A DNA stretch of 64,000 bases from IMG/VR virus record IMGVR_UViG_3300045988_182799; one strand, written 5' to 3'. The stretch is from a virus. Under the pieces are notes generated by a model. It saw nothing but the letters and a program-made list of their open reading frames with translations. It was not told the DNA's origin and searched no databases. The first letter of the stretch is position 1, and each line of letters starts with the position of its first letter. Made by a program: the position numbers and the translations under genes. Positions 2,401 through 36,154 of this stretch are shown in pieces.

Positions 2401-2523
2401 CTGGGCACGTCGGATGTTTCCGGCGTGCCCAGATAGGCGCTACCTATCGTGTCGTTCTAAGGCGGGAGCTGCCCGCCATCAGGTTTACCTGTGCATCGGA
2501 TTATCCCTTTCACTTATGCGGCC

Positions 2524-2624
2524 TGTCGGACGTAATTAGTGCATAGGCGTTCTCCTTTGTTCAGATTTTGACATCGGACGCGGTAATTACTGCATCGGAG
2601 TGCCCTCCCTGTTAGATTTCGACC
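2524..2624. repeat. two tandem degenerate ~50-nt repeats inside the ncRNA candidate
   Basis: Unit 1 is TGTCGGACGTAATTAGTGCATAGGCGTTCTCCTTTGTTCAGATTTTGACA. Unit 2 is CATCGGACGCGGTAATTACTGCATCGGAGTGCCCTCCCTGTTAGATTTCGACC. Aligned by eye at roughly 70% identity. Confidence 0.5.
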
Positions 2625-2758
2625 TGTTTAACGTCCGTGTCAGGACGTGTTCTGGATGGGTGGTGTCACACCACCGTGTTCCGTGCTTACGCGTCGCACC
2701 TGTACTCCACTATTACGCCTTATCGCGCGATTGACGTGTTCCCTTGTACTACACCCAG

Positions 2759-2835
2759 TGGCGACTCGTGCCGGACTCGAACCGGCGACCTCCAGCGTGA
2801 CAGGCTGGCGTTCTAACCATCTGAACTAACGAGCC
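2759..2835 (-). tRNA. tRNA-Asp(GUC): tRNA-Asp (anticodon GUC)
   Basis: Reverse complement GGCTCGTTAGTTCAGATGGTTAGAACGCCAGCCTGTCACGCTGGAGGTCGCCGGTTCGAGTCCGGCACGAGTCGCCA. Anticodon loop is CTGTCAC. Confidence 0.85.
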
Positions 2836-2869
2836 ATATATGACCGATTTAGCGTCGCGGCCGAGACGA

Positions 2870-2943
2870 TGGATACGGGGATGGGACTTGAACCCACAAC
2901 CACCAGCGTATGAGGCTGGTAAGCTACCATTGCTATACCCCGT
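2870..2943 (-). tRNA. tRNA-Met(CAU): tRNA-Met/Ile2 (anticodon CAU)
   Basis: Reverse complement ACGGGGTATAGCAATGGTAGCTTACCAGCCTCATACGCTGGTGGTTGTGGGTTCAAGTCCCATCCCCGTATCCA. Anticodon loop is CTCATAC. Initiator, elongator or lysidine-Ile identity cannot be decided by eye. Confidence 0.8.
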
Positions 2944-2992
2944 GTCAATAACAAGACATTGGCCGCAAGAACCTTCAAAACTTGCGTTGTCC

Positions 2993-3027
2993 ATCCCTCG
3001 CCACGCGGAGGCTGTCTTGTGAGGGAT
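2993..3027. other. conserved hairpin-loop element, copy 3
   Basis: ATCCCTC-[GCCACGCGGAGGCTGTCTTGT]-GAGGGAT: a 7-bp perfect stem with a 21-nt loop. Confidence 0.55.
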
Positions 3028-3204
3028 TCTCGGAGATTGCGCAAGGATGTGTAGAACTATACTGGTGTAGTATGATGTGCTGCAAGCAGCTACAATGCAC
3101 ATTCTCCGAGGTTGTTATTACCGTCTATCAAGTGAGGGTATGTAGCACTATAGTAGTTGTGATGTGTGTCGGGATGACACTTACAACACTTGATATTCGG
3201 TATA

Positions 3205-3280
3205 TGGCGGGTCGTACAGGGCTCGAACCTGTGACATCTTGATTAACAGTCAAGCGCTCTGCCGACTGAGCTAACGACCC
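3205..3280 (-). tRNA. tRNA-Asn(GUU): tRNA-Asn (anticodon GUU)
   Basis: Reverse complement GGGTCGTTAGCTCAGTCGGCAGAGCGCTTGACTGTTAATCAAGATGTCACAGGTTCGAGCCCTGTACGACCCGCCA. Anticodon loop is CTGTTAA. Confidence 0.85.
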
Positions 3281-3324
3281 AGAAATAAGACATTTGCCAC
3301 GGGGAGCTCAATACCCGTGTTACC

Positions 3325-3357
3325 GTCACCGCCGCGAGGAGGCTGTCTTATGGTGAC
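3325..3357. other. conserved hairpin-loop element, copy 4
   Basis: GTCACC-[GCCGCGAGGAGGCTGTCTTAT]-GGTGAC: a 6-bp perfect stem with a 21-nt loop. Confidence 0.55.
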
Positions 3358-3450
3358 ATAGCCCGCAAGATGTGTGTATAGCATCGTATCAAGAAGTTAC
3401 GATTCATCAAGCGGGATTTTGGATTTCAACGGAGGAACGATGAAAACCAA

Positions 3451-3526
3451 TGGAGCTTCCGGTGGGACTCGAACCCACAACCTACTGATTACAAGACAGT
3501 TGCTCCGCCTGTTGAGCCACAGAAGC
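3451..3526 (-). tRNA. tRNA-Thr(UGU): tRNA-Thr (anticodon UGU)
   Basis: Reverse complement GCTTCTGTGGCTCAACAGGCGGAGCAACTGTCTTGTAATCAGTAGGTTGTGGGTTCGAGTCCCACCGGAAGCTCCA. Anticodon loop is CTTGTAA; the anticodon stem has one non-WC pair at its base. Confidence 0.75.
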
Positions 3527-3621: not shown

Positions 3622-4308
3622 CTATATTTTGCGAATCTGCAAGTCACTGACATCTGCAATGTCTCGGTTTTCTTTCGTGACATCCTTTACCGCGCGTTTC
3701 TTTGACCAGAGAACACTCAGGACGCGATTGCGAAGGTTGTCGTCCTCGATAGTGGATGTCACTTTTACGATTTCTGACTCGCTCAAGTAGACTGTTCCAC
3801 CCTGCTGAATCATGGTCGGATACCCGTTATCACTTCTCAGGACCTTTTTATCAAGGCTATCGTAGGCGTATATCGCGTCGATAAGAAGTTCGGCCGCGAT
3901 TCCGTCCAGCTGTTCTTCCGTGATACCCTGGAAGACGAGCCAGCGGCGCATGAACGAGTCATCCGGGATACTGTCACTGTAAAGAGAGAACAGAGGAGAT
4001 ACCAGTTTGTTGCTCGAATAGCGCTCATGCTCTTCATCGACATTCAGGTTGTCCTGCCAAAGCTTCAGCATCAAGCCGTCGCCGTAGTAGACGAACGTGT
4101 CGTGAAAGAACCCGGACGAGCACACCTTGATATGGTCGATGTTCGCAACTTCCTCACGGTGGCAGAGTACAAAGCGCGTGCCTTCACTCTTGCCGTAGGT
4201 CTCATCGTCCCACTTGACCGTGACCCGTTCCAGCACAAACCTGTCGTTGAGGAGCTTCAGAACTGCTTTGATGGGAAATACTCGCCAGTCCATCAGATGT
4301 TTCTCCAT
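3622..4308 (-). CDS. hypothetical protein (228 aa), last gene of the AAA/zinc-ribbon/nuclease operon
   Basis: Intact ORF overlapping the upstream gene by 16 nt. No recognised motif. Confidence 0.55.
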   Translation of the reverse strand: MEKHLMDWRVFPIKAVLKLLNDRFVLERVTVKWDDETYGKSEGTRFVLCHREEVANIDHIKVCSSGFFHDTFVYYGDGLMLKLWQDNLNVDEEHERYSSNKLVSPLFSLYSDSIPDDSFMRRWLVFQGITEEQLDGIAAELLIDAIYAYDSLDKKVLRSDNGYPTMIQQGGTVYLSESEIVKVTSTIEDDNLRNRVLSVLWSKKRAVKDVTKENRDIADVSDLQIRKI

Positions 4309-4736
4309 TCCTTTGCTATCGGGTCGTACTCGGCCACTTCTTTTTTCGTAACCTTACCGTCCTTTTTATACAGCGTGACGCGCTGGATATAGTTGGCGGC
4401 ATTGGTATCAAGTCGGCGCATGGCTTCGGCAGAAGAGCTCGTCGTAGTGAGACTACGATAAGTCCCGCCGGAGCCCATGACGTCAGGCTCATAGTACCCA
4501 GTCTCGTAGTAGACTGCTATATCCTGTTCGTTAGGAGAAGCGGCATCCAGGATGACCTTGGAGCTTTCCTTGTTGCTACCCGCATAGGAGTTGCGGATGA
4601 TGCGAGCACCACGGTCATTCCCCTGCTGTTCATAGGCTTCGGCAATGAACTCAACGTAGGTCTTGAACTTCTGCTCGTCGCCGTCTCGATGTGCTTCAAT
4701 GAGCTTTCCGAGTGTAACTACGCCAACCACATTCAT
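4293..4736 (-). CDS. hypothetical protein (147 aa)
   Basis: Intact ORF in the operon. No recognised motif. Confidence 0.55.
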   Translation of the reverse strand: MNVVGVVTLGKLIEAHRDGDEQKFKTYVEFIAEAYEQQGNDRGARIIRNSYAGSNKESSKVILDAASPNEQDIAVYYETGYYEPDVMGSGGTYRSLTTTSSSAEAMRRLDTNAANYIQRVTLYKKDGKVTKKEVAEYDPIAKEWRNI

Positions 4737-5493: not shown

Positions 5494-6234
5494 TCACCTC
5501 CGCACTTTGCGGCAGGCGGGGCACTTAGGACCATACTTGCATACGGTAAAGAGCAACGGCGTCCATTCTTCGTCCTTGCCATAGCCGCAATCGGGACATA
5601 CCAAAGCAATGCGTTCACCGCTTCCGGCGGTCAGTTCATCGGGCCGAAACTTATTGGCGGTCGGATGCCACATAGCTGCAATCTGAGGGTATCCAACGCT
5701 GATGATAGGCTTCGTCGTGCATTTGCGAATTCGCTTCATCCGGTTGTGAGAAGCATTCAACCTGGCGCATTGCGGGCAGCCCGTATGATTCACGCCGCTG
5801 CCGCAAGCGAAAGCCAGGAGCGGATGCCACTCTCCGTTTTGACCATAGCCGCAGGTCTTGCAGACAAGATAGACATGCAGACCGCTGCCGGATGTGATTT
5901 GGTCAGGCTGGATGGTATTTAGCGTAGGATGCCACTGTTCGCCAATTTCAGGATGAACTGTAGCTACATCATTCACACCTTTGACCACGATTCGTCCAGC
6001 ACAAACCGGACAGCCGCCTTTTGTACGACAGACAGAAGAAAGCACCGGCCGCCATTCACCGTTTTTTCCGTATCCACACCGTGGACAAATCAAGGCAATG
6101 CGACGGCCGCTTCCACACGTGATTTCATCAGGACCACAGTCATTGGCAGTCGGGTGCCACATGGAAGCAATCTCAGGATGTTCTTCCGCTACCGTGCCGC
6201 GAGGCTCATAGAGCTTAATCTCAAATTCACGCAT
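5494..6234 (-). CDS. protein made of three tandem zinc-ribbon repeats (WHPT.N...GSG...CxxCGYG.NGEW...GCPxC)
   Basis: Three roughly 80-aa repeats each carry the W-H-P-T-x-N, GSG, C-x2-C-GYG and C-P-x-C signatures, i.e. 12 Cys in four-Cys clusters. The start overlaps the AAA ATPase stop by 8 nt. Confidence 0.7.
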   Translation of the reverse strand: MREFEIKLYEPRGTVAEEHPEIASMWHPTANDCGPDEITCGSGRRIALICPRCGYGKNGEWRPVLSSVCRTKGGCPVCAGRIVVKGVNDVATVHPEIGEQWHPTLNTIQPDQITSGSGLHVYLVCKTCGYGQNGEWHPLLAFACGSGVNHTGCPQCARLNASHNRMKRIRKCTTKPIISVGYPQIAAMWHPTANKFRPDELTAGSGERIALVCPDCGYGKDEEWTPLLFTVCKYGPKCPACRKVRR

Positions 6235-11730: not shown

Positions 11731-12888
11731 TTACGGCTTGCAATACCCGCAAGGTGTATAGCCCTGCTCGATTAGGTCATCGCGGGAACCTGTATAGTCT
11801 TTGCGGTTTGCATCGCTCATTTGAGCTACGGCGGAGCAGTCAGGCTTATGAAATTTCATAGAGTTTGTGTTCAGGACATAGGTACTGACCGTCGTATCCT
11901 TTTGCTGTGACTCCTCGACCTCGACTGTATCGGTGGTAGTGCTTTCTGCCGCCTGGTGATATTCGCCATAAGTGAAAGTGACGTCCTTACCGTCCGATGT
12001 GCAGTAGATGTCTCCCATCTCGTCAGTTCTGAAAACCTCAATGTCTTTGCTCTGGAGCTTTGCCAAAGTGATGTCGTGTGGATGACCATAGCTGTTGTCC
12101 TTGCCACAGGAAATAACAGCATAGGCTGGATTCACTGTGTCGAGGAACGCTTCGGATGTGGAGGTTCGAGAACCATGATGCCCTACCTTCAGAACAGTAG
12201 ATTGGATGTCTTGTCCAGACTGTAGGATAACATCTTCGGCAGGCTCTTCTGCATCACCCGTAAACAAGAATGAGGTTTCTCCATATACGATGCGTAGGAC
12301 AATGGAGGTATTGTTGGTATCATCCGGCACTGAGTTCACGGCGATAACAGTCACTTCGGCATCGCCAAGGGAGAATGTATCCCCTACCGACGGAATCGTA
12401 AGGCCGTTGCCTCTTTCTTCCGCTCGCTGCTTGAAGTTCCGAAAAGCTTTACTGTCGTACTCTGTGACAGGGCAATACGTGACATCAGCCGTCACGGCTT
12501 CGAATGCACCGGAAAGACCTCCGATATGGTCTTCATGGGCGTGCGTGCCAACAACATAATCCAGATGTCCGTCTGTCTCACGTTCCAGAACAGAATATAC
12601 GAGGTCAGAATCATCAACATTGCCACCGTCAATGAGCATCGAATGCCCATCACAGGTAACAAGAGCAGAGTCCGCCTGCCCCACATCAATGAAGTGGATA
12701 GTAAAGCTGCCGTCTTCCGTTACGCCAGCCGTCTGCTCGCTGTCAGAGACAGGACTTTCTGAGACGACCCCGGATACAGGAAGACTACCCGAATCAATCG
12801 GGGTCTGACCACAGCCTGCGAAGCTGAGCGTGAAGAGTGCCGCAACCGCTGCCGCTGCTCTCCGCAAGAATGTGTTTTTGCTTTGCAT
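11731..12888 (-). CDS. lipoprotein with a metallo-beta-lactamase fold (ComEC-C-like) and a C-terminal Ada-type Zn-binding-like domain
   Basis: Signal/lipobox ...LSFAGC. MBL motifs HFIDVGQADS...DGG and VGTHAHEDHIGG. C-terminus KFHKPDCSAVAQMSDANRKDYTGSRDDLIEQGYTPCGYCKP matches the FHxPxC...GYxPCxxCxP pattern of the Ada N-terminal Zn domain. Confidence 0.7.
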   Translation of the reverse strand: MQSKNTFLRRAAAAVAALFTLSFAGCGQTPIDSGSLPVSGVVSESPVSDSEQTAGVTEDGSFTIHFIDVGQADSALVTCDGHSMLIDGGNVDDSDLVYSVLERETDGHLDYVVGTHAHEDHIGGLSGAFEAVTADVTYCPVTEYDSKAFRNFKQRAEERGNGLTIPSVGDTFSLGDAEVTVIAVNSVPDDTNNTSIVLRIVYGETSFLFTGDAEEPAEDVILQSGQDIQSTVLKVGHHGSRTSTSEAFLDTVNPAYAVISCGKDNSYGHPHDITLAKLQSKDIEVFRTDEMGDIYCTSDGKDVTFTYGEYHQAAESTTTDTVEVEESQQKDTTVSTYVLNTNSMKFHKPDCSAVAQMSDANRKDYTGSRDDLIEQGYTPCGYCKP

Positions 12889-15855: not shown

Positions 15856-16362
15856 TTAGATGACGGGCTTTTCCGCAGAATACTGCCGATTGACCAGTTC
15901 CTGTGTACTCATGGCGCAGAACCCTGCATCAGCGGCCGCGTCAACCGCCTTGAAGTAGTCATCCACAAAGAGAATTTGGGAAGGCTCTAAGCCGTAGACT
16001 TTGGCAAACATCTGCATAACGGTCACTTTGCGTTCCGGGCTGGATGTGCCAAGCATGTCATGGAACTGGCCCGGAAAGTGCATTTCAAGCCATTGTTTTT
16101 TGAACGGCAGCGTGATGCTGTCCTGCACAAAAGAGATGCAGTATTTCGGAATGTCGGGGCAGCTCTCAAGGAAGTGCTGGATGAGGTCATTGGGCTCACC
16201 GATTTCATCAAAGACTCGGTAGCCGTCCTTCGTTTCTTTTTCCCGGCGCAGGAGCCGTTCCCTGTGGGCCTCTCCCGTAGCATCGAGCCGATGTTCCCGA
16301 TAGTGGATAAGCAGTGTATCATCAAAATCGAAGAACATCATCTTGATTTTTGAAAGGTTCAT
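15856..16362 (-). CDS. HAD-superfamily phosphatase (5'(3')-deoxyribonucleotidase/NT5C-like)
   Basis: HAD motif I FFDFDDTLL sits near the N-terminus once the start is placed at ATG ~16362 (RBS AAAGGAGAA). The size and motif spacing fit NT5C-like phage/plasmid dNMP phosphatases. Confidence 0.6.
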   Translation of the reverse strand: MNLSKIKMMFFDFDDTLLIHYREHRLDATGEAHRERLLRREKETKDGYRVFDEIGEPNDLIQHFLESCPDIPKYCISFVQDSITLPFKKQWLEMHFPGQFHDMLGTSSPERKVTVMQMFAKVYGLEPSQILFVDDYFKAVDAAADAGFCAMSTQELVNRQYSAEKPVI

Positions 16363-16375
16363 GTCGTTTTCTCCT

Positions 16376-16669
16376 TTATTTGTAGGCAATTTCATGGTTT
16401 GTGACATCAGATTCTGTCAGGAAAACATCACTATAGTCGTCCTCATCCGTTCCAGCGCAAACATGGTGTTCATAAGGCATAGAGCCTTCTTGCTCCACAT
16501 CAATGCGCCAGATACTGTCGGTGTAGTGGACGAACAAAACCGTGTCATCTTCCAGAAAGAGCCAGACACCGGCCACATCATAGCAGCCGATTTCATCCAC
16601 TGCATAATTTGAATTGTCCAAGCAGACGAGGTCGTCGCTCGAACCGTAGATTTTAACCATCATATACAT
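16376..16669 (-). CDS. hypothetical protein (97 aa)
   Basis: Intact acidic ORF. Confidence 0.5.
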   Translation of the reverse strand: MYMMVKIYGSSDDLVCLDNSNYAVDEIGCYDVAGVWLFLEDDTVLFVHYTDSIWRIDVEQEGSMPYEHHVCAGTDEDDYSDVFLTESDVTNHEIAYK

Positions 16670-20570: not shown

Positions 20571-20668
20571 GGTCTAAGTCCTCCAAAAACACATATTGAC
20601 GCAAAAAGAATACCCCGGCAAACACTCAATGCGTTCCACCGGGGTACAATTATTTATCTTACAATATC

Positions 20669-20697
20669 AATTGTAGGCAATTCGCACAGATGGTCAA
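20669..20697 (-). promoter_or_regulatory. promoter e of the conserved-spacer family (helicase operon)
   Basis: Minus strand TTGACC-atcTGTGCGAATTGcc-TACAAT. Confidence 0.55.
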
Positions 20698-20739
20698 GTG
20701 TTTTTTACCGTATTGTGTTTTGAATTTTGCGAGTAAAAA

Positions 20740-20870
20740 AATGACGTCCACCCGTGATTTACGGATGGACGTTCAATCTTACGCAGCCTCACGGGTTGCT
20801 ACTGTTTACGTCACGGGACGCATTTTTTGCATACATGGTTTCAATCTTACGCGGTCTCATTGGCTGCGGC
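20740..20870. repeat. non-coding repeat cluster: 8-bp inverted repeat plus 13-bp direct repeats
   Basis: GACGTCCA..15 nt..TGGACGT, followed by TTCAATCTTACGC twice ~70 bp apart and two CACGGG(A/T) copies. Lies between the nucleotidyltransferase gene and promoter e. Confidence 0.4.
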
Positions 20871-21012
20871 AACAAAGCCATATAATGACTTCACTTTGTA
20901 CATAACACAGCATTGTATGTTTTTCTGTTAACTATGGTGTTTTGCTAATATCTCATTGGCATAGACCTCCATTCTCTACATTCGTTGGTGCAAAGCCTTT
21001 TTGTACTTTATT

Positions 21013-22020
21013 TTACATGACACGTCGCAGATAGGACTTGTTGATTTCTACCAGCAACTCCTCAACCTTCCCAAAGTCCGGCTTGGTCGGGAGCATAGTT
21101 TCCTTCACATCTCGCTGGAATCTTGATTCGAGCCGGTCAACAAGCTCAAAGAATTCGGGAGCGTATGCCCCATCTTGGTACATGTATTTACCGTTGCGGA
21201 TAGCAAGCAGTTCCTCGCGTTCCTTGTCCCGGCGGGCGATGATGTGTCCTTGCTCCAGAATGTCAAAGGCCGTGTAGTATAGCCGTACAAGGTGCATTGC
21301 ATGTTTATTGATGTGGGCAGCATCTTTTTGCGCTTTCGGATGCTGCGGCTGTTCATACTGGTCGATAGTCGTTGTCAGACCTCGAAGCAGGGACTTGAGA
21401 GAGTTGACAGGATAGTTACTCAGATTTCCAGAAATCAAGAGAGGATGTTTGCCTTCAGAATCGACATCTTTACTGATGCTGATTTCAAAGACATCATCTT
21501 TACCCTGACCTGCAATAAGTCGTTCGAGGCTTCTCTTTTCAAACTTGTTTTTGAGCGGCTCAGGAGAAGCGCCATTCCGCAGTAGTCCCATCTGCAAGCG
21601 TCTGAGCTGGTCGTTCGCAAAGCCACCATAGCTGTATGCAATGCGCCGGGTCAGGAAAAGTTCCTTGTTATCCAGCAGCATCTGTCCTTCTGGAGTCATG
21701 TTCACATACAGCTTCGGGTCGTTGCCAAGAAGCTCAATGACATTAGGGTTACATTGGACAAGCAGGTTGACAAATTTATTGATGGCGTAGATGACGGTAT
21801 CCGTCTGATTATTGATGACTTGCTCAAAGCGATTAAACCCCAAGATTTCAGGCGAACCAGCCGCACCACGGATGTCAACATCTGAACCCTCAACATTCGT
21901 ACCATAGGCGTGGCTGCCGCCGATAGTCAAAAACAGGATGTTATCTCCCAGATGCTTGTTGGTGCGTAAAAAATCATATTCTTCACGCTGGAGAATCGCT
22001 TTCAATTCTGCGTTTGTCAT
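21013..22020 (-). CDS. pol-beta-superfamily nucleotidyltransferase (335 aa)
   Basis: Canonical NTase motif LFLTIGGSHAYGTNVEGSDVDIRG (GS-x9-13-DxD) with a helical C-terminal domain. Substrate cannot be assigned by eye. Confidence 0.75.
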   Translation of the reverse strand: MTNAELKAILQREEYDFLRTNKHLGDNILFLTIGGSHAYGTNVEGSDVDIRGAAGSPEILGFNRFEQVINNQTDTVIYAINKFVNLLVQCNPNVIELLGNDPKLYVNMTPEGQMLLDNKELFLTRRIAYSYGGFANDQLRRLQMGLLRNGASPEPLKNKFEKRSLERLIAGQGKDDVFEISISKDVDSEGKHPLLISGNLSNYPVNSLKSLLRGLTTTIDQYEQPQHPKAQKDAAHINKHAMHLVRLYYTAFDILEQGHIIARRDKEREELLAIRNGKYMYQDGAYAPEFFELVDRLESRFQRDVKETMLPTKPDFGKVEELLVEINKSYLRRVM

Positions 22021-22040
22021 GTTACCACTTCCTTACTATT

Positions 22041-22460
22041 TCACGTCATTGCAATACATTTCTTTTCAACCCGGACCCACTTCTCCGTACCCCTGTCATA
22101 CTCCAGCACGTCTTTGGCAACCACTGTGCTTCCCTCGATATATTCCAGAATTTGCCGCACACGCATGGGACGTTTCGCATCCTGTGCTATCCGTAGCGCT
22201 GCATCTCTGTACTCAACTGTGTATGCAGGCTCGTAGGTTACATACGGGCAGCCATCGGGTTGTGTCTGACGACTCAGCTCAAAGCGCGACCGGACGTAGC
22301 CGTTGTGCAGGGCATTACGGATGGCGCAAGCACTTTTTCTTTCGCCACTCTGTTCAAAGGTTTGTGCAATTTCCTCCACACACCGACAAAAATGCGTGGC
22401 ATCTTGGCTGTGTTTTGCGAAAATCAGTTTTCGAATCAGCAGTGCTTCATCTTGACTCAC
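22041..22460 (-). CDS. hypothetical protein (139 aa)
   Basis: Intact ORF adjacent to the NTase. Confidence 0.55.
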   Translation of the reverse strand: MSQDEALLIRKLIFAKHSQDATHFCRCVEEIAQTFEQSGERKSACAIRNALHNGYVRSRFELSRQTQPDGCPYVTYEPAYTVEYRDAALRIAQDAKRPMRVRQILEYIEGSTVVAKDVLEYDRGTEKWVRVEKKCIAMT

Positions 22461-22472
22461 GGCTCTCTCCTT

Positions 22473-22808
22473 TCACTTCTTCGTCGAGACCAAGAAGACT
22501 CTTTTGGAGAAAGTTCCCTTCTCTGCTGCCTTCTGGCTTCTGACCTGTTCCACTTCCCTCTTAGAGACAGCGCAAGTCTTGCCAATAGCGTACAGAACCT
22601 CCATGACGTCTGATATTTCCTCTGCACAGTCCAGAACGCTCCGTTGCTTGGCGGTGTAGGCTTCCAGCAGTTCGGCAACCTCTTCTTTCAGTTTCTCAGC
22701 CAGAGCATCTTCGTACTCCTTATCAGACAGCTTACGGGTCACGCAGGTTTCTCCGTTTTTCTCAATAATAGCCGGGATATTATCCCGAACCAGCTTTTGA
22801 AACATCAT
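22473..22808 (-). CDS. MazG-like / all-alpha NTP pyrophosphohydrolase family protein
   Basis: Placing the start at MMFQKLVRDNIPAII removes an 89-nt overlap with the upstream gene. The KLVRDxIPxII N-terminus and following EExxE pattern are typical of small MazG/HisE-like NTP-PPases. Confidence 0.55.
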   Translation of the reverse strand: MMFQKLVRDNIPAIIEKNGETCVTRKLSDKEYEDALAEKLKEEVAELLEAYTAKQRSVLDCAEEISDVMEVLYAIGKTCAVSKREVEQVRSQKAAEKGTFSKRVFLVSTKK

Positions 22809-22812
22809 AGTT

Positions 22813-23235
22813 TTATCTTTCCTCCAGTTTACAGCGCCGCAGCGGTATGCGCAGCTCACGACAGGTGTATGCGGTTTCTCGTTCATCATCGGTTCCTTCA
22901 AAGACTACACAGCCTTTCTGCTGTTGCTTGGAAAGGTATGCGGGTAAATCATCGTTTGTGACAGATACAAATAGGTATCCACGCTCACTGGCGTACATCG
23001 CAGCCAAGGCCGCAATCTTCTGCCCTGATTCTGCTACAATGACAACCTTATCTCGCTTTGCCAGCATCTTGTCGAGATACTCAGCTACCTGTTTGCGGTG
23101 CTTCCCCATCGCTTGCTGCGTGGCAGTAACACCACAAAAGAACCAATCCTTTTTGCAGATTCTGGCATCGCATTCCTTGCACTGAAGGTAAACCACATTG
23201 CCGTTTATGTATGGACAGTAAATGCTCATTCGCAA
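22813..23235 (-). CDS. hypothetical protein with N-terminal Cys cluster (140 aa)
   Basis: CPY..(11)..CKEC plus a Rossmann-like segment KVVIVAESGQKIAALAAMYAS. No fold assigned. Confidence 0.5.
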   Translation of the reverse strand: MRMSIYCPYINGNVVYLQCKECDARICKKDWFFCGVTATQQAMGKHRKQVAEYLDKMLAKRDKVVIVAESGQKIAALAAMYASERGYLFVSVTNDDLPAYLSKQQQKGCVVFEGTDDERETAYTCRELRIPLRRCKLEER

Positions 23236-23448
23236 TTACACCTTTTTGAAATATTTCTCAACGTATTCATCCGGCAGCTCCATGCGCATCTTATCCGGTC
23301 CTGTGAATTCCTTGAAGCTATATTGCCCACCGCACCAGACCAGATGCCAGATAGTCCCGCGTTTGACGCGGTACGGCTTCTTTTTGCCATCAGGCCCGTC
23401 ATACCATAGTGTCAGCGGCTTGACGCATTTGTAATTTGTGTTATACAT
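23236..23448 (-). CDS. small hypothetical protein (70 aa)
   Basis: This is the C-terminal part of track ORF 23236-23742. The long version overlaps the macro-domain gene by 245 nt and is rejected. Confidence 0.35.
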   Translation of the reverse strand: MYNTNYKCVKPLTLWYDGPDGKKKPYRVKRGTIWHLVWCGGQYSFKEFTGPDKMRMELPDEYVEKYFKKV

Positions 23449-23497
23449 ATCGCTCCTTGTTTTTGTTGGTGGATTCTCCAACCCGTATTCATTTGTC

Positions 23498-23977
23498 TTA
23501 TCTCTTATTCGGCGACAAAACCCAAATCTCCACATTAGCGTTCCACGCCTCAGCAGCTTCGGCAATGAGAGAAAAGACAGTGTCCCAATCACCGCCCGCA
23601 AGGCCGCAGCCGATGCTGCTCGGAATACGGATGGTTGCTTCCGGCGCAATTTTCGAACAATCTCGCATAAACGTAAACAATGCCGTTGCAAAGGCAGCAT
23701 AGTTCGTCTGGCGTTCACCAAGTCCATAGTTATTTTGCCCAAACAGGTTCACAACATGAATGTTCGGCTCAACCCGGACTTTCTGGTAACTGCCAAGGAA
23801 CTCTTTCCATGCCGGGATTTCCATATACTGCTGGTACACAACGGGCCACTTACGGCGGATTTTGAGAGCAAGCCCTGCGCCCATCACGCCTCGACAATTC
23901 ACCTGCTGACAGATGTAGACCTCCTTGTTAGAAGGAAGATTCGTCAGGATGTCGCCAGAGATAATCTTGATGCTCAT
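23498..23977 (-). CDS. macro domain protein (ADP-ribose binding/hydrolysing fold)
   Basis: KIISGDILTN...VYICQQVNCRGVMGAGLALKIRRKWP is the canonical macro-domain N-terminal signature (GDIT...N..G.GvagAi). Confidence 0.8.
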   Translation of the reverse strand: MSIKIISGDILTNLPSNKEVYICQQVNCRGVMGAGLALKIRRKWPVVYQQYMEIPAWKEFLGSYQKVRVEPNIHVVNLFGQNNYGLGERQTNYAAFATALFTFMRDCSKIAPEATIRIPSSIGCGLAGGDWDTVFSLIAEAAEAWNANVEIWVLSPNKR

Positions 23978-23981
23978 GTCC

Positions 23982-24581
23982 TCACTCCTTTATGACGATA
24001 TAGTTGCCGTTGGCAAAGCCCAGCAGCTTGTTGTAAAGCTCCGCAGAAATTTCAATGAACGTCTCGCTGCACAGGCCTATCTTGTGCAGGAATCGCTTGT
24101 CTTGCTGCATAGACGATGCCATGTTAAAGGCAATGGCAAGAACCTTTTTCTGCATGCGGCCGAAAGTCACGCCTCTCATTTCCACACTGTCAGGCGTTGC
24201 TGCCCACACGGATGCCTGTACTGTAATGGCCCACAGGTCCGCATCCCAGAAGCGAGCGTTTTCGTTGCCCATCAAGGGCCGCATAATGCGCCAGGCGTTC
24301 GCGTAGCTCTTGCCTTCGACATTTTCAATGGCAGGCCCGAAGAAGCCGTCCGTTTTGTTGCTGAGTTCAATGAGACGCTCAGCCATCTTGGTGGCAGCGT
24401 AGGCCAGAGACTTGGCATCGGTGTCGTTCATTTCGATAGTCAGCTCTTCCCCATCGGGCTTGATGTACTTATACTTGTTCTCACCAATGGCTGCACTCTC
24501 CTGCAGGACGCGAGGCAGTTCCTTCAGCATTGTCTTGCTTGCACCAGCCTTCGCTTTTTCAATGTAACTGCTGTTTGACAT
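23982..24581 (-). CDS. hypothetical protein (199 aa)
   Basis: Intact ORF. No motif. Confidence 0.55.
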   Translation of the reverse strand: MSNSSYIEKAKAGASKTMLKELPRVLQESAAIGENKYKYIKPDGEELTIEMNDTDAKSLAYAATKMAERLIELSNKTDGFFGPAIENVEGKSYANAWRIMRPLMGNENARFWDADLWAITVQASVWAATPDSVEMRGVTFGRMQKKVLAIAFNMASSMQQDKRFLHKIGLCSETFIEISAELYNKLLGFANGNYIVIKE

Positions 24582-24619: not shown

Positions 24620-25045
24620 TCAGTTCAGCTTGTTTCCCGGATAGAGCGCATAGTCATTGCGGGATGCACGCTCCTCGCTATGTATCAGCATTACGTTTGC
24701 CATGCTGGTGTAGTAGTCCTTGTCTCCGCTCATCGTGTCTTCGACCCCAAATTTGATGTTCAGACCACCATCGACAATCTCGTACTTTACGAGCCTGGCT
24801 ATGACCCACTGATTATTATGCCGGTAGTAGATGTAATCATAGTCCGTCTCTGCTGATTCTGCCGTACTGGGCTCGGCTGTCTCACTCGTAGCAAACAGCT
24901 GTGACGGAATGTCCTTCAGTTCTTCCAGCGTCTGGTCTGCTACTTCACCGCAGCCCTCGAAGGCTACTGCAACGACCAAAATCACGCACACGACCAGTGC
25001 TTTCTTTGCAAATCGCATAATCTGTTTCAAGTGAATCACCACCAT
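24620..25045 (-). CDS. secreted/lipoprotein-like hypothetical protein
   Basis: N-terminal hydrophobic segment ALVVCVILVVAVAFEGC. Confidence 0.55.
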   Translation of the reverse strand: MVVIHLKQIMRFAKKALVVCVILVVAVAFEGCGEVADQTLEELKDIPSQLFATSETAEPSTAESAETDYDYIYYRHNNQWVIARLVKYEIVDGGLNIKFGVEDTMSGDKDYYTSMANVMLIHSEERASRNDYALYPGNKLN

Positions 25046-25214: not shown

Positions 25215-25402
25215 GTTCTCGCAGTGAGCGTTTTAGGTCCGCTCAAGACCCTATTCGTCTCTACCGAAGCAACGCTATCAGCGCTGTTCAGTATCTATTA
25301 GTATATGGTGGTCGCATATCGTGTCAACTGCATATCGCGGCCATGCAACAGAAAAAGGAGCCTCACCTGCTTCTTGCAGGCAAGACTCCTCATTCGTATG
25401 GT

Positions 25403-25729
25403 TTAGCCTTCCACGTCGAAGGTGTAACCCTTTACGGTCATAGTGACCAGGCCGCCACGAGACTGACACTTTACGCCGTCCAGGCTGACATCGAGAGTCA
25501 GGCTGGAATCTTCGTTGTCCAGCCAGCTGGGCCGCATGTAGGCAGCGAGGTCGTGCAGCGCACCGATGACGTAAGTAACCAGGTCCTCATCATCCAGAGT
25601 CTGAGCAATCACATCGTTTTCCTTGTCGGCGGGAAAGCCGATGGAAGCGGTGATGCTGTCAAGGGTGTTGTCGTCCTTGGAGCGGAAAGCGGTGGCGCTG
25701 AACTCAATCAGGTTAGGGTTGGTGTTCAT
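25403..25729 (-). CDS. small highly acidic protein, paralog 1 (108 aa)
   Basis: Start placed at MNTNPNL (RBS AAAGGAGAA). It is 45-50% identical to the downstream paralog over its full length. Confidence 0.6.
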   Translation of the reverse strand: MNTNPNLIEFSATAFRSKDDNTLDSITASIGFPADKENDVIAQTLDDEDLVTYVIGALHDLAAYMRPSWLDNEDSSLTLDVSLDGVKCQSRGGLVTMTVKGYTFDVEG

Positions 25730-25777
25730 AGTGGTATTCTCCTTTGTATATGTTATTGATTTCCTGTGGTACTTATT

Positions 25778-25805
25778 ATTGTATGCGGTTCGCATAAGGC
25801 GTCAA
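25778..25805 (-). promoter_or_regulatory. promoter f of the conserved-spacer family
   Basis: Minus strand TTGACG-cctTATGCGAACCGca-TACAAT. Confidence 0.5.
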
Positions 25806-25916: not shown

Positions 25917-26237
25917 TTAATCTTCGAGGCCGAAGGTGAAGCCGTTTTCTTTCATAGCAACGAGACCGCCGCGTGACTGAGCCTCGCTGCCGTCGATGGA
26001 AATATCCAGCGTCAGGCTGGTATCTTCGCCGTCCAGCCAGTTGGGCCGCATATCGCTGATAAGGTTGTACAGTGCGGCAACAGCATGAACAATCAGCTTT
26101 TCCTCGCCCAGTGCATTTCCAATCACCTCATCGTCGTTCTCTACGGGAACGCTGATGGATGCCGAAAAACTTTCGAGGTTGTTGTCGTCATCATTGCGGA
26201 ATGCGGTAGCTTCAAATTTCAGAGTGCAAGTATTCAT
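25917..26237 (-). CDS. small highly acidic protein, paralog 2 (106 aa)
   Basis: MNTCTLKFEATAFRNDDDN... It has the same RBS and 5' UTR (caataacatatacaaaggaga) as paralog 1. Confidence 0.6.
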   Translation of the reverse strand: MNTCTLKFEATAFRNDDDNNLESFSASISVPVENDDEVIGNALGEEKLIVHAVAALYNLISDMRPNWLDGEDTSLTLDISIDGSEAQSRGGLVAMKENGFTFGLED

Positions 26238-29694: not shown

Positions 29695-30306
29695 TTACGC
29701 AATAGAATTAACCATATCCAACTCCATACAGAAAACCACGAAGGCCAGGTTGGTGATTTTATCGGCATCCGTATCGAGATGCCCGACAAGTTCCTTGACC
29801 GCACCGCTGTCCTTGAGGCTCTTGGCCGCCTGGTAGACGAGCATGTAGGTGTTGACGTAGATGGCCTGCTGCATCACGCGGTCCTTGGTAATGTGCTCCG
29901 GCATGCAATCCACGGAAAGTGACTTGATGAGCGGATACCAACAGGAAAGGTACAAAGCACCACCCTCATCGTTCATCGCCTGCTGAATCTTGACCTGATA
30001 CTTCGGGTAGTTACCGTTCACGACCTCAATGAACTCGGTATCTTTGAACTCATCGCGGTGGCAGTGAAGCCACAGGATAGCGTTGGCAAGGTCCATGCAG
30101 ATGAGTGCCAGCTTTTCGGCTTTGGCATCATCCAGTTTGACGGTATCGAAGCTGTCAGCATCGATGTCATACTGCTTGTAAATGTTCACCAGCTTGTAGC
30201 TATTCTCCCCTGCGCGTACCTTTGCCTTGATGAAGTCGGTAAAGTCGTGCGCCAGGGCCTCGTAGGCTTTCTGCTGCTCTTCGGCAATCGTATTCTGTTC
30301 GCTCAT
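29695..30306 (-). CDS. hypothetical protein, paralog A2 of a two-member family (203 aa)
   Basis: Start at MSEQNTIAEE with RBS AAAGGAGAA. Shares YKLVN(I/L)Y, A(I/T)LWL, (E/V)DCMP(D/E) and DADKI(T/G)NLAF blocks with 31534-32145. Confidence 0.6.
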   Translation of the reverse strand: MSEQNTIAEEQQKAYEALAHDFTDFIKAKVRAGENSYKLVNIYKQYDIDADSFDTVKLDDAKAEKLALICMDLANAILWLHCHRDEFKDTEFIEVVNGNYPKYQVKIQQAMNDEGGALYLSCWYPLIKSLSVDCMPEHITKDRVMQQAIYVNTYMLVYQAAKSLKDSGAVKELVGHLDTDADKITNLAFVVFCMELDMVNSIA

Positions 30307-30320
30307 GTTGAGTTCTCCTT

Positions 30321-30764
30321 TTATCTTAATTTGGTCCTGATTTCTTCGAGCATCATGCCCAGTTTGTTCTGACCGTGAACGCCCTTGCATCTGGGACACT
30401 GGCAATCCCCCCAATAGTTATCGTGCCAGCCGGTCGTGTCTTCGATAATGTGCCGGTCGCCTGTAGCGAGCAGTCGCTGTTTGAACTCCTCGTTCTGGCT
30501 GAACTTGGCATACAGCACCCGGCGCATCGCTTCGTCTCGAACTTCGTCCCAATCTGGAGAAAGTTGGACCCGGCGGCCGAGTTTCTTCGCCTCGTTCGGC
30601 ATGAGGCAGGCAAACTGGCGTCTCTCCTCCAGCGGGACCTTCTGGGCCTGGAACGCTGCCTCCGCGTTGAGGTAGTAGATTCCATCCAGCACAAAGGAGC
30701 AAGGATAATAATTGCTCAGAAACCCGTAGGTCGGGTCGCCTTTCTTAAACCGCAGCAGATTCAA
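30321..30764 (-). CDS. NADAR (YbiA-like) domain protein
   Basis: FLSNYYPCSF...YLNAEAAFQAQK...EAKKLGRR...PDWDEVRDEAMRRVLYAKFSQNEEFKQRLLATGDRHIIEDTTGWHDNYWGDC...GQNKLGMMLEEIR follows the NADAR fold pattern end to end. Confidence 0.8.
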   Translation of the reverse strand: MNLLRFKKGDPTYGFLSNYYPCSFVLDGIYYLNAEAAFQAQKVPLEERRQFACLMPNEAKKLGRRVQLSPDWDEVRDEAMRRVLYAKFSQNEEFKQRLLATGDRHIIEDTTGWHDNYWGDCQCPRCKGVHGQNKLGMMLEEIRTKLR

Positions 30765-31407
30765 TGTGCATTCCCTCCATGACCCCGGCGGGCGTATCTT
30801 TGAGAACCTTGTATCGCATCGTCGTAACGCCCAGCAGACCGTTGAAGATGGTCACAGCGGTATGCGTGAACAGAGGGTTCTGCAAGGTCATCTTGCCGTT
30901 TGTATCCCACTGGCCTTTGAGTGCAGCGGCCGCATCGTACACAACCATCATCATGGCTTCATACATGTCGGACATCAGCTGTCGGTCGTACTTCTTCAAA
31001 GCATAGTAGCTTGGCAGGTTGTAAACGCGGCCGAGGAGCGGCTCGTCATACAAGGGCGAACCTTTCGCAACCATCGTATTGTAGACTTTGGGCCAGGCAT
31101 CTTCTTTCGGCTTGCCGGTGGTTGCCTGCATCTCGATGTTCTTGAAACCAGCCGTCATGTTGTACAGCACCATGAGCCGCTCGGCAAGCAAGACAGAAGA
31201 TTCAGCCAGGTGCTTTGCTTCCTCATTGGTCATCGCAACCTGCATGGCCGTGCTGTCCGAGTCGTTGCCATAATAGAAATACTGCTTGCGCCCGGCGGCA
31301 GCTTTCTGTACGAGCTTCTTTGCCAGCTGGCTCTCGATGTAATTGTAGATGTCGTTCTCCAACTCGCAGGTGATGCGCGTTGCGGTATAATGGATATTTT
31401 TGTTCAT
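30745..31407 (-). CDS. hypothetical protein (220 aa)
   Basis: Intact ORF between paralog A1 and NADAR. Confidence 0.55.
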   Translation of the reverse strand: MNKNIHYTATRITCELENDIYNYIESQLAKKLVQKAAAGRKQYFYYGNDSDSTAMQVAMTNEEAKHLAESSVLLAERLMVLYNMTAGFKNIEMQATTGKPKEDAWPKVYNTMVAKGSPLYDEPLLGRVYNLPSYYALKKYDRQLMSDMYEAMMMVVYDAAAALKGQWDTNGKMTLQNPLFTHTAVTIFNGLLGVTTMRYKVLKDTPAGVMEGMHIESAAV

Positions 31408-31533: not shown

Positions 31534-32145
31534 TCACGGATTCATCTCGTATGCAATCAGCGCGTCATTGAAATACTTGAAAGCCAAGTTGCCGATTTTA
31601 TCGGCGTCCTTCGGCAGCTTGTCCACCATGCGCTTAATAGAGCCGCCCGTCTTGAGAGACTTCATCGCAAGGTGAACATTCCAGTACATGTTGGTATACA
31701 CCAACTGCCACTTCTTCTTATCGCCGACATAAGCATCCGGCATACAGTCTTCTGCCACAAGGCGGATAAGCATATCCCACGCATCCAGATAGAGCGGGCT
31801 TGTATTGTCGTTCAGCTTATGGATGATTTGCTTCAGATAGGAAGTGTAGTCTTCCCCGCTGATGTCAACGAGCTCGATGTCTGCGAACTTGTCGCGGAAG
31901 TAGTACAGCCAAAGCGTTGCTTTTGCAAGGTCGCAGCTGGCCGCAGCAAGCAGCTGAGCCTTTTCGTCCGGCAAAGTCACAATCTTGGCATCAGGGTCAT
32001 CCAAGCCCTTCTCACCATAGAGATTGACCAGCTTGTACTGGTCTTTGCCGACTCTATCCTCTCTGCGAATAAACTCTTTGAAGTCTTCCACGAAGGCAAT
32101 GTATGCCTGGACTTGCGGGTCGTTTTTCGGGTTGAACTCACTCAT
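31534..32145 (-). CDS. hypothetical protein, paralog A1 (203 aa)
   Basis: See paralog A2. Sits behind promoter i. Confidence 0.6.
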   Translation of the reverse strand: MSEFNPKNDPQVQAYIAFVEDFKEFIRREDRVGKDQYKLVNLYGEKGLDDPDAKIVTLPDEKAQLLAAASCDLAKATLWLYYFRDKFADIELVDISGEDYTSYLKQIIHKLNDNTSPLYLDAWDMLIRLVAEDCMPDAYVGDKKKWQLVYTNMYWNVHLAMKSLKTGGSIKRMVDKLPKDADKIGNLAFKYFNDALIAYEMNP

Positions 32146-34470: not shown

Positions 34471-34818
34471 TCATGGGCTGGCTTCCCTGCAGCAAAATGC
34501 TCTTTTTGGGTTCCCGCTCGGAAAATAGAACATCCTTGGCTCCGGGTAGTCATTCTGTTGGCGGCGCTTTGTATATATCCTGCCTTCAAACTCAAATTGA
34601 TATACGACAGAATAGTTGTAGTTCTTATAGGTGGGTTCACTGGAGTCATACGGCAAGTTCCGGATTTTGACAGGCGTAGCCATAGCACAGTAACCTTTAT
34701 CTTTTGCTGCCTGAACCTGCTCTTCGTATGTGTTGAACCAGTGAGGATGCTTGGCTACCGGTATGCCGATACAGATGATGACAATGAAGGTTGAGATAGC
34801 GAATAAAGCGATATTCAT
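34471..34818 (-). CDS. membrane protein (115 aa)
   Basis: N-terminal TM segment LFAISTFIVIICIGIPV. Confidence 0.5.
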   Translation of the reverse strand: MNIALFAISTFIVIICIGIPVAKHPHWFNTYEEQVQAAKDKGYCAMATPVKIRNLPYDSSEPTYKNYNYSVVYQFEFEGRIYTKRRQQNDYPEPRMFYFPSGNPKRAFCCREASP

Positions 34819-36092
34819 TGCCAGTCCCTCCCATAGACTCTGATGTCAGAAGGATATTCGGTCATCATCTTATATTCTTCATCATCAGCCTTCACATCGC
34901 TCCATGTCCACTTACCATCCGCAAAAATAATGACATGTCCCCTTTGAAGCTCTGAGACGTATTTTGCGTTCTTTTCGCTCAAGTGGCATGCTTTTGCCAC
35001 ATTGGGAACCAAATGGCTGAATATTTTGTGGTATACCTGTACATCTGAATCAGCCATGATTTCATGGAGAAACGCATCGTCTATACCGTCGTTAAACACG
35101 CTGGTAACGGTGATTACGGTGCAGTCACAGGGCATCGCGTTCTGGCAGAGGTGTTTGCTCCAGCTCAAAGTGGTGTCACGCTCCAGCATAAACGGAGCAT
35201 TTTTCATAACGTCACGGTTCTCGCCAAAGAATACATCCCGCATCAGAATAGCCTTCTTGTCCGCCTCGTCCTGCATACGCTCGCTGAGGATTTCAAAGCA
35301 ATAGGCCATCATAAAGTCCTTGGCCGTACTGTCTTTTTCGATTTGTCCCCTGTATTTCATAAAGTCCAGCACAAGGAAAGGACTATCCCAATCAACATCC
35401 GTCTTATGGTTGAACCAGCCATAAGGTCCATCTACAAACTGTGAAAGCACGTTTGTGAAGTCATCAAGTTCTTTCAGATGTGCAAGCTTAATAGTCGTAT
35501 AAAAGTCTTCTATAGTCGGGAACTCTTTGTACTGGTCTGAGTCTTCCACGAGAAGACTGGCATTGTCATAGGTGATGCCTTTGACCTTATAAAGGCGGTA
35601 GAGTAACGCATCAAGCAATCCCGCTTGCTCTGGTGTCATCTCAGGATACATTGCTCTGAACACTGTGAGCAGTTCCTGTACTTTTCTTGTTAGAACGGAA
35701 CACTTACGGGAGCCTTCTTTCGGCTTGCGAATGTCGAACAAGTTGATATGTGAGTTTTCTTCTCCTATAATCACGTTCTTACCGCCAAGCTGGTCGCACA
35801 TATAGCCGTACTCTTCACGGCTCAACCCATCCGTTAGGATAGTAGCTTGTGCTCCTTGCTTGCAAAGGCGGTAAAGAATCAACTTGCCAGTAAAATCCTT
35901 GCCCTGGCCGTGGCTTCCGACAATGGAGATGACTGAGTTTTGATGCTTGGAAGCGTCAGTCATGTTGACGACTATATCGGCATCCTCTTTTCCTGTCCAG
36001 CACTTTGCAATGCTGATACCGCCTTCTTCTTGAATCGGTATGATTTCAGGAACATTAGCGGGCGCTTGCTTCTTTTTGAAAAACGGAAACAT
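34815..36092 (-). CDS. P-loop ATPase of the VirD4/TraG coupling-protein type (no N-terminal TM)
   Basis: Walker A IVGSHGQGKDFTGKLIL resembles the APTRSGKGVGxVIP motif of T4SS coupling proteins; a Walker B-like hhhhD is present. Start placed at MFPFFKKK (RBS GGGAGGG); the upstream GTG overlaps promoter j. Confidence 0.5.
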   Translation of the reverse strand: MFPFFKKKQAPANVPEIIPIQEEGGISIAKCWTGKEDADIVVNMTDASKHQNSVISIVGSHGQGKDFTGKLILYRLCKQGAQATILTDGLSREEYGYMCDQLGGKNVIIGEENSHINLFDIRKPKEGSRKCSVLTRKVQELLTVFRAMYPEMTPEQAGLLDALLYRLYKVKGITYDNASLLVEDSDQYKEFPTIEDFYTTIKLAHLKELDDFTNVLSQFVDGPYGWFNHKTDVDWDSPFLVLDFMKYRGQIEKDSTAKDFMMAYCFEILSERMQDEADKKAILMRDVFFGENRDVMKNAPFMLERDTTLSWSKHLCQNAMPCDCTVITVTSVFNDGIDDAFLHEIMADSDVQVYHKIFSHLVPNVAKACHLSEKNAKYVSELQRGHVIIFADGKWTWSDVKADDEEYKMMTEYPSDIRVYGRDWQ

Positions 36093-36126
36093 GTCATTTT
36101 CCCTCCCAATATGTATCTGATTTTTA

Positions 36127-36154
36127 TTATCTGCAATTCGCACAATTCATCAAA
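36127..36154 (-). promoter_or_regulatory. promoter j of the conserved-spacer family
   Basis: Minus strand TTGATG-aatTGTGCGAATTGca-GATAAT. Confidence 0.55.

Follow-up and report, generated by a model that had tools for sequence, protein, structure and literature searches.

What is the role of the seven genes that stand in a row at positions 21013-24581 of the IMG/VR record IMGVR_UViG_3300045988_182799? The stretch analysed here, hereafter the window, is 64,000 nucleotides long, and an earlier note on it had read this gene string as part of a set of enzymes which act on nucleotide signals and nucleotide-based modifications and with which a mobile element might counter host immunity. The explanation that we favour, tentatively and with slightly less than even confidence, is that the string is a terminator-bounded accessory operon, whose enzymes reverse immune damage to the nucleic acids of the element, each of them damage of another kind. 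The locus appears to be anchored by a gene for a stand-alone macro domain and by a gene for a nucleotidyltransferase (NTase) of the RlaP family, with exchangeable genes between them. The seven open reading frames (ORFs), identified from the translations of the window and all co-directional, are listed below from the first to the last gene.

23982-24581, minus strand: unk199, 199 aa, a helical and fast-evolving protein, one of four paralogues in the window
23498-23977, minus strand: macro, 159 aa, a stand-alone macro domain of the ALC1-like class and SCO6735 subtype, predicted ADP-ribosyl glycohydrolase
23236-23448, minus strand: small70, 70 aa, lineage-restricted
22813-23229, minus strand: Cys138, 138 aa, an N-terminal Cys cluster followed by an alpha/beta domain
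22473-22808, minus strand: MazG-like protein, 111 aa, by sequence an all-alpha nucleoside triphosphate (NTP) pyrophosphohydrolase of the MazG/HisE superfamily
22041-22460, minus strand: unk139, 139 aa, an orphan that co-occurs with the MazG-like gene
21013-22020, minus strand: NTase, 335 aa, a putative Pol-beta nucleotidyltransferase of the RlaP family, the conserved anchor of the locus

Predicted enzymes of the string

The macro domain had been correctly recognised in the earlier note. The protein fell below the threshold of the generic Macro model of Pfam and matched the DarG profiles of PADLOC (6.9e-14) and NCBIfam (1.9e-12; profile positions 1-149, that is, the macro part only, with 47 bits against a full-length cut-off of 250), as well as phrog_335 (2.9e-36), a family annotated as 'phosphatase'. 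Its closest solved relatives were SCO6735 (PDB 5e3b, 5.3e-14, aligned with residues 6-141 of the window protein), BT1257, DarG of T. aquaticus and M. tuberculosis, and TARG1, and the DarG structure 5m3i matched at 2.1e-5. A Gln (NLFGQNN) stands where DarG and TARG1 have their catalytic Lys (K80 and K84, respectively), and the same substitution is found in SCO6735. The Asn of QQVNC, the Gln of LFGQ and the IGCGLAGG loop align with Asn27, Gln85 and the Gly128 loop of SCO6735, and these features are kept in the window protein and in the copies of all 23 aligned relatives. SCO6735 strips thymidine-linked ADP-ribose off DNA and shields cells from DarT; its activity is lost when Gln85 is mutated, and is nearly lost or much reduced when Asn27 or Gly128 is (PMC9411070). 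The window protein comprises the macro domain only, with no C-terminal DarT-binding domain, and scans with Pfam, PADLOC and other family models found no DarT or other ADP-ribosyltransferase family among the neighbours of macro or of the NADAR gene described below. Taken together, macro is a predicted SCO6735-type ADP-ribosyl hydrolase of the ALC1 class, with the essential residues intact and no toxin partner detected, and probably represents an orphan antitoxin-like hydrolase similar to AdfM (PhiKZ gp104), a phage macro domain that counters DarTG2 (PMC13309987).

The same macro subtype also forms the C-terminal half of a YpsA-SLOG fusion on megaplasmids of Bacillus thuringiensis and Cytobacillus (contigs L047, 3476-6372, and L048, 3491-4913). 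On one of the two, the fusion gene is followed by genes for a GIY-YIG nuclease and then, two genes downstream, Thg1, a tRNA-repair nucleotidyltransferase; on the other, it is followed by a gene for a weak DarT1-associated-NADAR-like protein.

A second ADP-ribosyl hydrolase is predicted outside the string.

30321-30764, minus strand: NADAR hydrolase, 6 kb upstream of the string

The assignment of this protein to the NADAR family, already made in the earlier note, was confirmed by PF08719 (6.3e-27), TIGR02464 (3.9e-25) and the PDB entry for YbiA (1.9e-15). The protein also matched the NCBIfam model 'NADAR family anti-phage protein' (1.4e-17, 63 bits against a cut-off of 240) and the PADLOC candidate PDC-M42C (1.2e-15). 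Its gene start overlaps a paralogue of unk199 (30745-31407) by 20 nt, and this pairing is retained in about 15 related loci. As AdfN, a NADAR protein of the T4 type, counters DarTG1 (PMC11825919), the window protein may well be a further orphan antitoxin-like ADP-ribosyl hydrolase, the second on this element.

The last gene of the string had been described as a Pol-beta nucleotidyltransferase with a GGS...DxD motif, a description that can now be refined. Residues 17-142 matched the Pfam profile of RlaP (PF10127) at positions 9-140 of 249 with 66.2 bits (cut-off 23, E 4.6e-18), and phrog_388 matched over the full length of the protein (2.5e-47). There were 2591 homologues, and all full-length ones among the 120 listed carry PF10127. 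G34-G35-S36, D47-x-D49 and D74, which make up the Pol-beta motif and a third acidic residue, are invariant across 29 homologues. An AlphaFold2 (AF2) model built with 29 sequences had a predicted local distance difference test score (pLDDT) of 87.7 and a predicted template modelling score (pTM) of 0.83, and shows helices at the N-terminus, a core of beta-sheet, a helical domain and, at 316-334, a terminal helix. In the crystal structure of PfRlaP, an N-terminal NTase domain is joined to a C-terminal helical domain, and the last helix packs on the N-terminal helices (PMC12776372). The 335-aa protein is thus classified, from its sequence, as an RlaP-family enzyme.

The earlier note had asked whether a structural comparison would place the protein with the cGAS/DncV-like nucleotidyltransferases (CD-NTases), the antibiotic nucleotidyltransferases (ANT/Lnu) or the MNT enzymes, the ANT/Lnu outcome being counted against its proposal. 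A Foldseek search of the model against the PDB gave no match at E <= 0.001, sequence and profile searches of the PDB found no relative, and no cGAS- or DncV-type enzyme was among the structural matches listed. We rejected the CD-NTase assignment on account of the PF10127 match and the lack of cGAS/DncV similarity in sequence or fold; ANT/Lnu and MNT were rejected as well, because no close similarity was found and the sequence places the protein in RlaP. The idea that this NTase acts on nucleotide signals was therefore not borne out, as RlaP is a family that works on damaged RNA. Its members extend an RNA 3'-OH by one or two nucleoside monophosphates, prefer mimics of cleaved tRNAs and are inactive on DNA and protein; the family, of which T4 NrdC.11 is a member, was named after its association with RNA ligases (PMC12776372). 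RlaP had earlier been predicted to replace nucleotides taken off by anticodon nucleases (PMC7824862). Homologues of the window protein were found in 292 phage records and in plasmids of Clostridium and Clostridioides, and a scan of GTDB gave no match. Their neighbours are often tRNA-related, such as CCA-adding enzymes, and include a calcineurin-like phosphoesterase; in a C. difficile phage, the RlaP homologue has a KptA gene at a distance of about 5 kb.

The remaining proteins of the string are less readily assigned. The 111-aa protein is a putative NTP pyrophosphohydrolase of the MazG/HisE type, in line with the earlier note: its match to the Pfam PRA-PH model (PF01503) is weak (22.1 bits, cut-off 21.3), its translation contains the acidic metal-binding motifs E42-E43-x-x-E46 and E63-E64-x-x-D67, and it is 31-43% identical over the full length to annotated NTP pyrophosphohydrolases of Bacillales and other plasmids and of one Vibrio jumbo phage. 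The adjacent unk139 had 22 representatives, none of them annotated, in an exhaustive search of 1.84 billion proteins. A paralogue of unk139 (4293-4736, minus strand), which shares 27% identity with it over 144 aa (E 2e-5), is encoded well away from the string and has no MazG-like neighbour.

The earlier note had described Cys138 as a Cys-cluster and Rossmann-like protein. The Cys cluster was upheld, as C5, C17, C25 and C32 are invariant and C20 is nearly so, whereas the Rossmann-like fold is plausible only, from a beta-alpha-beta pattern in a poor AF2 model (pLDDT 52.6) that shows a hairpin followed by beta-alpha repeats. E67-S68-G69 is also invariant in this family, the 178 members of which are all at least 62% identical. 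Weak matches to the CARF model of PADLOC were obtained with 17 of 25 family members (best E 0.0017) and to the YAcAr/SLOG model of Pfam with nine of 25 (best E 0.034), all of them below significance. Searches of the PDB by sequence or profile found no relative of Cys138, and a profile comparison with the SLOG half of the Bacillus SLOG-macro fusion was not significant, with a probability of 0.2%. Toprim and cRec were rejected as identities of Cys138, since the acidic residues needed are not conserved (the two aspartates of cRec are missing).

The first gene of the string belongs to a family with four helical copies of about 200 aa and no known domain in the window (23982-24581, 29695-30306, 30745-31407 and 31534-32145, all on the minus strand); unk199 and the copy at 30745-31407 share 24% identity over 182 aa (E 1e-12). 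A word-based search found only 13 close homologues of unk199. We considered the possibility that unk199 or the protein at 30745-31407 is a hidden DarT-like transferase, and rejected it because neither matched an ADP-ribosyltransferase, DarT or PADLOC model and both belong to the four-copy helical family.

Operon, relatives and host element

The gene models proved to be robust. The start of small70 was refined to the final 70 codons of a 168-aa ORF and that of the MazG-like gene to the ATG at 22808, and independent gene calls on near-identical metagenome contigs gave identical lengths (199, 159, 70, 138, 111, 139 and 335 aa). Each of the seven starts is preceded by a GGAG-like motif (ribosome-binding site), and the intergenic gaps along the string are 4, 49, 6, 4, 12 and 20 nt, the first being that between unk199 and macro. 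The surroundings of the string contain the following features.

24620-25045, minus strand: unk141, 141 aa, with a lipoprotein-like N-terminus, possibly the first gene of the unit
25300-25327, minus strand: promoter-like site (TTGACA-16-TATACT, 11/12 consensus match), upstream of the unit
20744-20772, minus strand: terminator-like hairpin and T-run at the 3' end of the unit

A gap of 442 nt (20571-21012) separates the NTase gene from that for a UvrD-like helicase, and holds the hairpin (20772-20744) followed by a promoter-like site (20697-20670). Promoter- and terminator-like sites were also located at 25391-25188, upstream of unk141. These sites are consensus matches only, and promoter-like sites in the region were no more numerous than in shuffled sequences. 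We describe the string as one transcription unit because of the consensus sites taken together with the tight gene spacing. Rfam scans found no RNA family within or around the string, including the 442-nt gap. The gap also holds a 28-nt direct repeat, the two copies of which (20772-20799 and 20840-20867) are 82% identical.

In most relatives, unk141 neighbours the macro gene on its upstream side. Its identity is 41-57% across some 24 more distant loci and 95% in two near-identical loci, and it has no family match in Pfam or in phage protein-family profiles. Just upstream of the operon are two tandem paralogues (25403-25795 and 25917-26237, minus strand; 51% identity), which are kept in most relatives.

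A search of IMG/VR with the NTase yielded 29 loci on contigs of 36-346 kb, which were then searched with the window proteins by tblastn. The macro gene is followed by the NTase gene in about 25 loci, with a spacing of only about 230 nt in most of them. In the other arrangements, the space between the two genes is occupied by the MazG-like gene and unk139 (L009, L010 and L025), by small70, the MazG-like gene and unk139 (L002), or by small70, Cys138, the MazG-like gene and unk139 (L003 and L026). In the presence/absence table of the relatives, the MazG-like gene and unk139 occur together in every case, and small70 travels with Cys138 or alone.

An ENA contig, L035, carries all seven genes in unchanged order, which indicates that the string delineated in the earlier note is more than a chance arrangement. 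The identities to the window are 34% (unk199), 52% (macro), 82% (small70), 73% (Cys138), 87% (MazG-like), 59% (unk139) and 59% (NTase). The ratios of nonsynonymous to synonymous substitution rates (dN/dS) between the window and L035 are low for the four central genes (small70, 0.06; Cys138, 0.14; MazG-like, 0.05; unk139, 0.09), a sign of strong purifying selection, which shows that the unassigned ORFs are real genes. The dS values are 1.1-3.2 for these four genes and saturated for unk199, macro and the NTase, and the central cassette thus diverged later than its flanks.

Recombination has even reached into the RlaP gene. Residues 1-150 of the L035 protein (contig positions 8001-9023) resemble the window protein (21013-22020; 68-84%), and the remainder is 98-100% identical to the NTase of a further contig, L043 (8001-9038), which does not have the string; we therefore place a breakpoint within the gene, near residue 150. 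Two genes of 111 and 144 aa upstream of RlaP in L043 were considered as counterparts of the MazG-like gene and unk139, and rejected as unrelated. As judged from these comparisons, the locus is a mosaic slot anchored by macro and RlaP, with exchangeable cassettes between them, not one fixed system. The cassettes that were probably gained and lost by recombination are small70 with or without Cys138, the MazG-like gene with unk139, and also unk199; small70, Cys138 and unk139 appear to be restricted to this lineage. DNA similarity searches against known phages and plasmids gave no match.

The earlier note had taken the window to be part of a mobile element, and we concur. A VirB4/TraG-P-loop ATPase is encoded at 59880-62552 (minus strand; PF19044, 2.2e-19), and near-identical contigs that extend just past the window end (L040, 1-9991) carry genes for a type IV coupling protein (PF02534), an M23 peptidase and a protein of 1694 aa. 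Family scans found no capsid, portal or clear terminase in the window, and IMG/VR catalogues the relatives as viral. A scan of GTDB with the VirB4-like protein gave one match, a gene 87% identical on a 224-kb contig (L042) of a human-gut metagenome-assembled genome labelled Clostridiales bacterium. Because of the VirB4-like ATPase and the coupling protein, and because capsid, portal and clear terminase were not found, we treat the element as a probable large conjugative plasmid-like element of gut Clostridiales; a phage-plasmid is also possible. Nearly all genes of the window lie on one strand, and seven tRNA genes are located at 135-3526 (minus strand; Ala-TGC, Thr-CGT, Gly-TCC, Asp-GTC, Met-CAT, Asn-GTT and Thr-TGT). 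The VirB4-like ATPase has, for its N-terminal part, a 442-aa paralogue encoded at 34815-36143 (minus strand), with 26% identity over 392 aa (E 1e-31).

Possible functions of the string

If the string is an operon for the reversal of immune damage, its enzymes would act side by side and not as a single pathway. By analogy with characterised relatives, macro would act on single-stranded DNA that DarT2-type toxins have modified and free its thymidines of ADP-ribose, and single-stranded DNA, the proposed substrate of macro, is the form in which DNA enters by conjugation. The nearby NADAR protein may do likewise for guanine adducts, and RlaP may restore nucleotides lost at tRNA 3' ends after cuts by anticodon nucleases, so that a ligase, supplied by the host or from elsewhere on the element, could reseal the tRNA. 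These two roles are also modelled on characterised relatives. For the MazG-like protein, small70, Cys138 and unk139, we can only guess at some other nucleotide-directed counter-measure or at a support of RNA repair. The seven tRNA genes suggest that the tRNAs of the element are under pressure, which we count in favour of this explanation, together with the tRNA-related neighbours of the RlaP homologues (KptA, CCA-adding enzymes) and the calcineurin-like phosphoesterase. The anti-immunity proposal of the earlier note is thereby retained in part: macro and NADAR belong to classes that phages use against DarT, but what they would bring about is the reversal of damage and not the degradation of messengers.

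Several observations weigh against the damage-reversal operon. No function could be assigned to four of the seven proteins. The positions of K34 and K89, which position DNA in SCO6735, are occupied by Ala and Gly in the aligned window protein, so that DNA may not be the substrate of macro. Among the ORFs scanned across the 64-kb window there was no RNA ligase, polynucleotide kinase, KptA or sirtuin, and no ligase was present among the genes called just past the high end of the window either (the whole element exceeds 100 kb); the usual partner of RlaP is thus missing locally. Moreover, the adjacency of macro and RlaP was seen only within one lineage of related elements, and the more distant RlaP loci have no macro neighbour, so that the adjacency may reflect common descent instead of function.

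The main rival is a single coherent RNA-repair pathway, which we regard as rather unlikely. In such a pathway, RlaP would rebuild 3' ends, the MazG-like and Rossmann-like proteins would serve the same route, and macro would clear ADP-ribose-1''-phosphate or related by-products of NAD-dependent end healing, or de-ADP-ribosylate RNA ends. The association with RNA ligases from which RlaP has its name fits this idea, although no ligase, kinase, KptA, sirtuin or 2H enzyme was found in the window. Predicted RNA-repair neighbourhoods of phages include a MazG-superfamily pyrophosphatase and the Rossmannoid cRec domain (PMC9503650), but Cys138 is without the two aspartates expected of cRec. The 'phosphatase' annotation of phrog_335, the SLOG-macro fusions on unrelated Bacillus megaplasmids, one with Thg1 two genes downstream, and the KptA gene near the RlaP homologue of the C. 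difficile phage would also agree with RNA repair, as would the tRNA genes, the two calcineurin-like phosphoesterases and the HAD phosphatase of the element. Nevertheless, macro is of the TARG1/DarG/SCO6735 class and not of the Poa1p or MacroD type, and the middle genes are dispensable in most relatives.

It is also conceivable, albeit improbable, that the string, in keeping with the reading of the earlier note, degrades or sequesters the messengers of CBASS, Pycsar, Thoeris or type III CRISPR systems, with Cys138 as a CARF/SLOG-like binder or ring nuclease and the MazG-like protein as a hydrolase of messengers or their precursors. The faint CARF and YAcAr/SLOG matches of the Cys138 family point in this direction, and no other part of the string is as conserved, or was exchanged as recently, as the central cassette. 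Those matches are, however, all below significance, the Cys138 model is poor, the profile comparison with a real SLOG-macro protein was negative, and the NTase is not a CD-NTase; in addition, the literature searched contains no report of a MazG-type enzyme acting on immune signals. A role in the protection of the host, as an element-borne defence or toxin-antitoxin module (for example, the MazG-like protein paired with unk139, or NADAR and macro in candidate defence systems), was ranked least likely, and we give it very little credence. In its favour are the matches of NADAR to the anti-phage and PDC-M42C models and the inseparability of the MazG-like gene and unk139 among relatives. On the other hand, the NADAR match is far under the family cut-off, neither hydrolase is accompanied by an ADP-ribosyltransferase or other toxin family, and the other string proteins have no significant match in PADLOC (unk139 and Cys138 are marginal, E 0.006-0.008).

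Returning to the damage-reversal operon, its recognisable parts are all from known families, and orphan antitoxin-like hydrolases on mobile elements are already published. There is a modest chance that the central, lineage-restricted cassette hides something new. It is attractive to speculate, although we consider it a long shot, that small70, Cys138, the MazG-like protein and unk139 form an undescribed counter-defence module, in which a zinc-ribbon plus CARF/SLOG-like protein binds a messenger and a MazG-type enzyme destroys the messenger or its precursor, flanked by macro and RlaP in a conjugation-adapted 'nucleic-acid first-aid' operon.

The protection of phages from DarTG by orphan antitoxin-like ADP-ribosyl hydrolases was shown only recently. 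The presence of both a macro and a NADAR protein on a widespread conjugative element of gut Clostridiales suggests that the same counter-measure matters for conjugation, as the DNA enters as single strands, the substrate that DarT prefers. The locus also places RlaP in a plasmid setting with no ligase nearby, and provides conserved, lineage-restricted companions of a MazG-type enzyme, namely small70, Cys138 and unk139. If the predictions fail, the locus is a plain variable accessory slot of known enzyme families.

Other genes of the window and comparison with known systems

The window further encodes a sortase, an SPFH protein, Mor-like helix-turn-helix proteins and a lipoprotein with a metallo-beta-lactamase fold. 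The last (11731-12888, minus strand) was considered as an Apyc1 and judged unlikely, since it has a lipoprotein-type signal peptide and is probably extracellular; precomputed records of its relatives contain a faint match to Anti-Pycsar Apyc1. The protein encoded at 15856-16407 (minus strand), which the earlier note had called NT5C-like, gave only a generic HAD signal (4.4e-4), so that this more specific name is not upheld; it is a HAD-type phosphatase with a DxDxT motif. Two tandem calcineurin-like phosphoesterases are encoded at 52522-54149 (minus strand), and together with the HAD protein they are candidate RNA end-healing enzymes. A 234-aa ORF at 45672-46376 (minus strand) contains the N-terminal IMS (UmuC/DinB) domain alone (PF00817, 1.3e-47), as in a truncated or split gene for a Y-family polymerase, and a 246-aa protein at 5494-6234 (minus strand) has three Cys-rich internal repeats (WHPT.N...PD.IT.GSG...C..CGYG..GEW.P.L).

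Among known systems, SCO6735 of Streptomyces coelicolor shares with the window macro protein the stand-alone size, the Gln at the catalytic-Lys position, the Asn and the IGCGLAGG loop. SCO6735 is chromosomal, whereas the gene in the window lies on a mobile element and its product has K34 and K89 replaced. AdfM and AdfN resemble the window proteins in being stand-alone ADP-ribosyl hydrolases on mobile elements with no toxin gene, and the window element carries one of each class. Both are phage-borne, whereas the window element is putatively conjugative, with no demonstrated phage. AdfM further differs in that it keeps the Lys of the DarG type (FPTKDNW) where the window protein has Gln, and their similarity in BLAST is confined to the N-terminal 51 residues.

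The NTase agrees with PfRlaP, PaRlaP and T4 NrdC.11 in the Pfam match, the Pol-beta motif and the three acidic residues, and its model suggests a comparable layout of an NTase domain and a helical domain with a terminal helix. It differs in its length (335 aa against the 249 positions of the model, with the Pfam match in the N-terminal half only), in its lack of an adjacent RtcB or other RNA ligase, and in belonging to the phage cluster phrog_388. The MazG-like protein has the size (about 100-110 aa) and the EExxE...ExxD motifs of the small MazG/HisE 'house-cleaning' enzymes of Bacillales plasmids and the Vibrio jumbo phage, but the window-type gene is always paired with the orphan unk139. At the level of the whole locus, the uniformly oriented small accessory genes, including anti-immunity candidates, recall the anti-defence clusters in the leading regions of conjugative plasmids (PMC11541004). 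The classic set of those clusters is ArdA, PsiB and SSB, and the enzyme families of the window differ from it.

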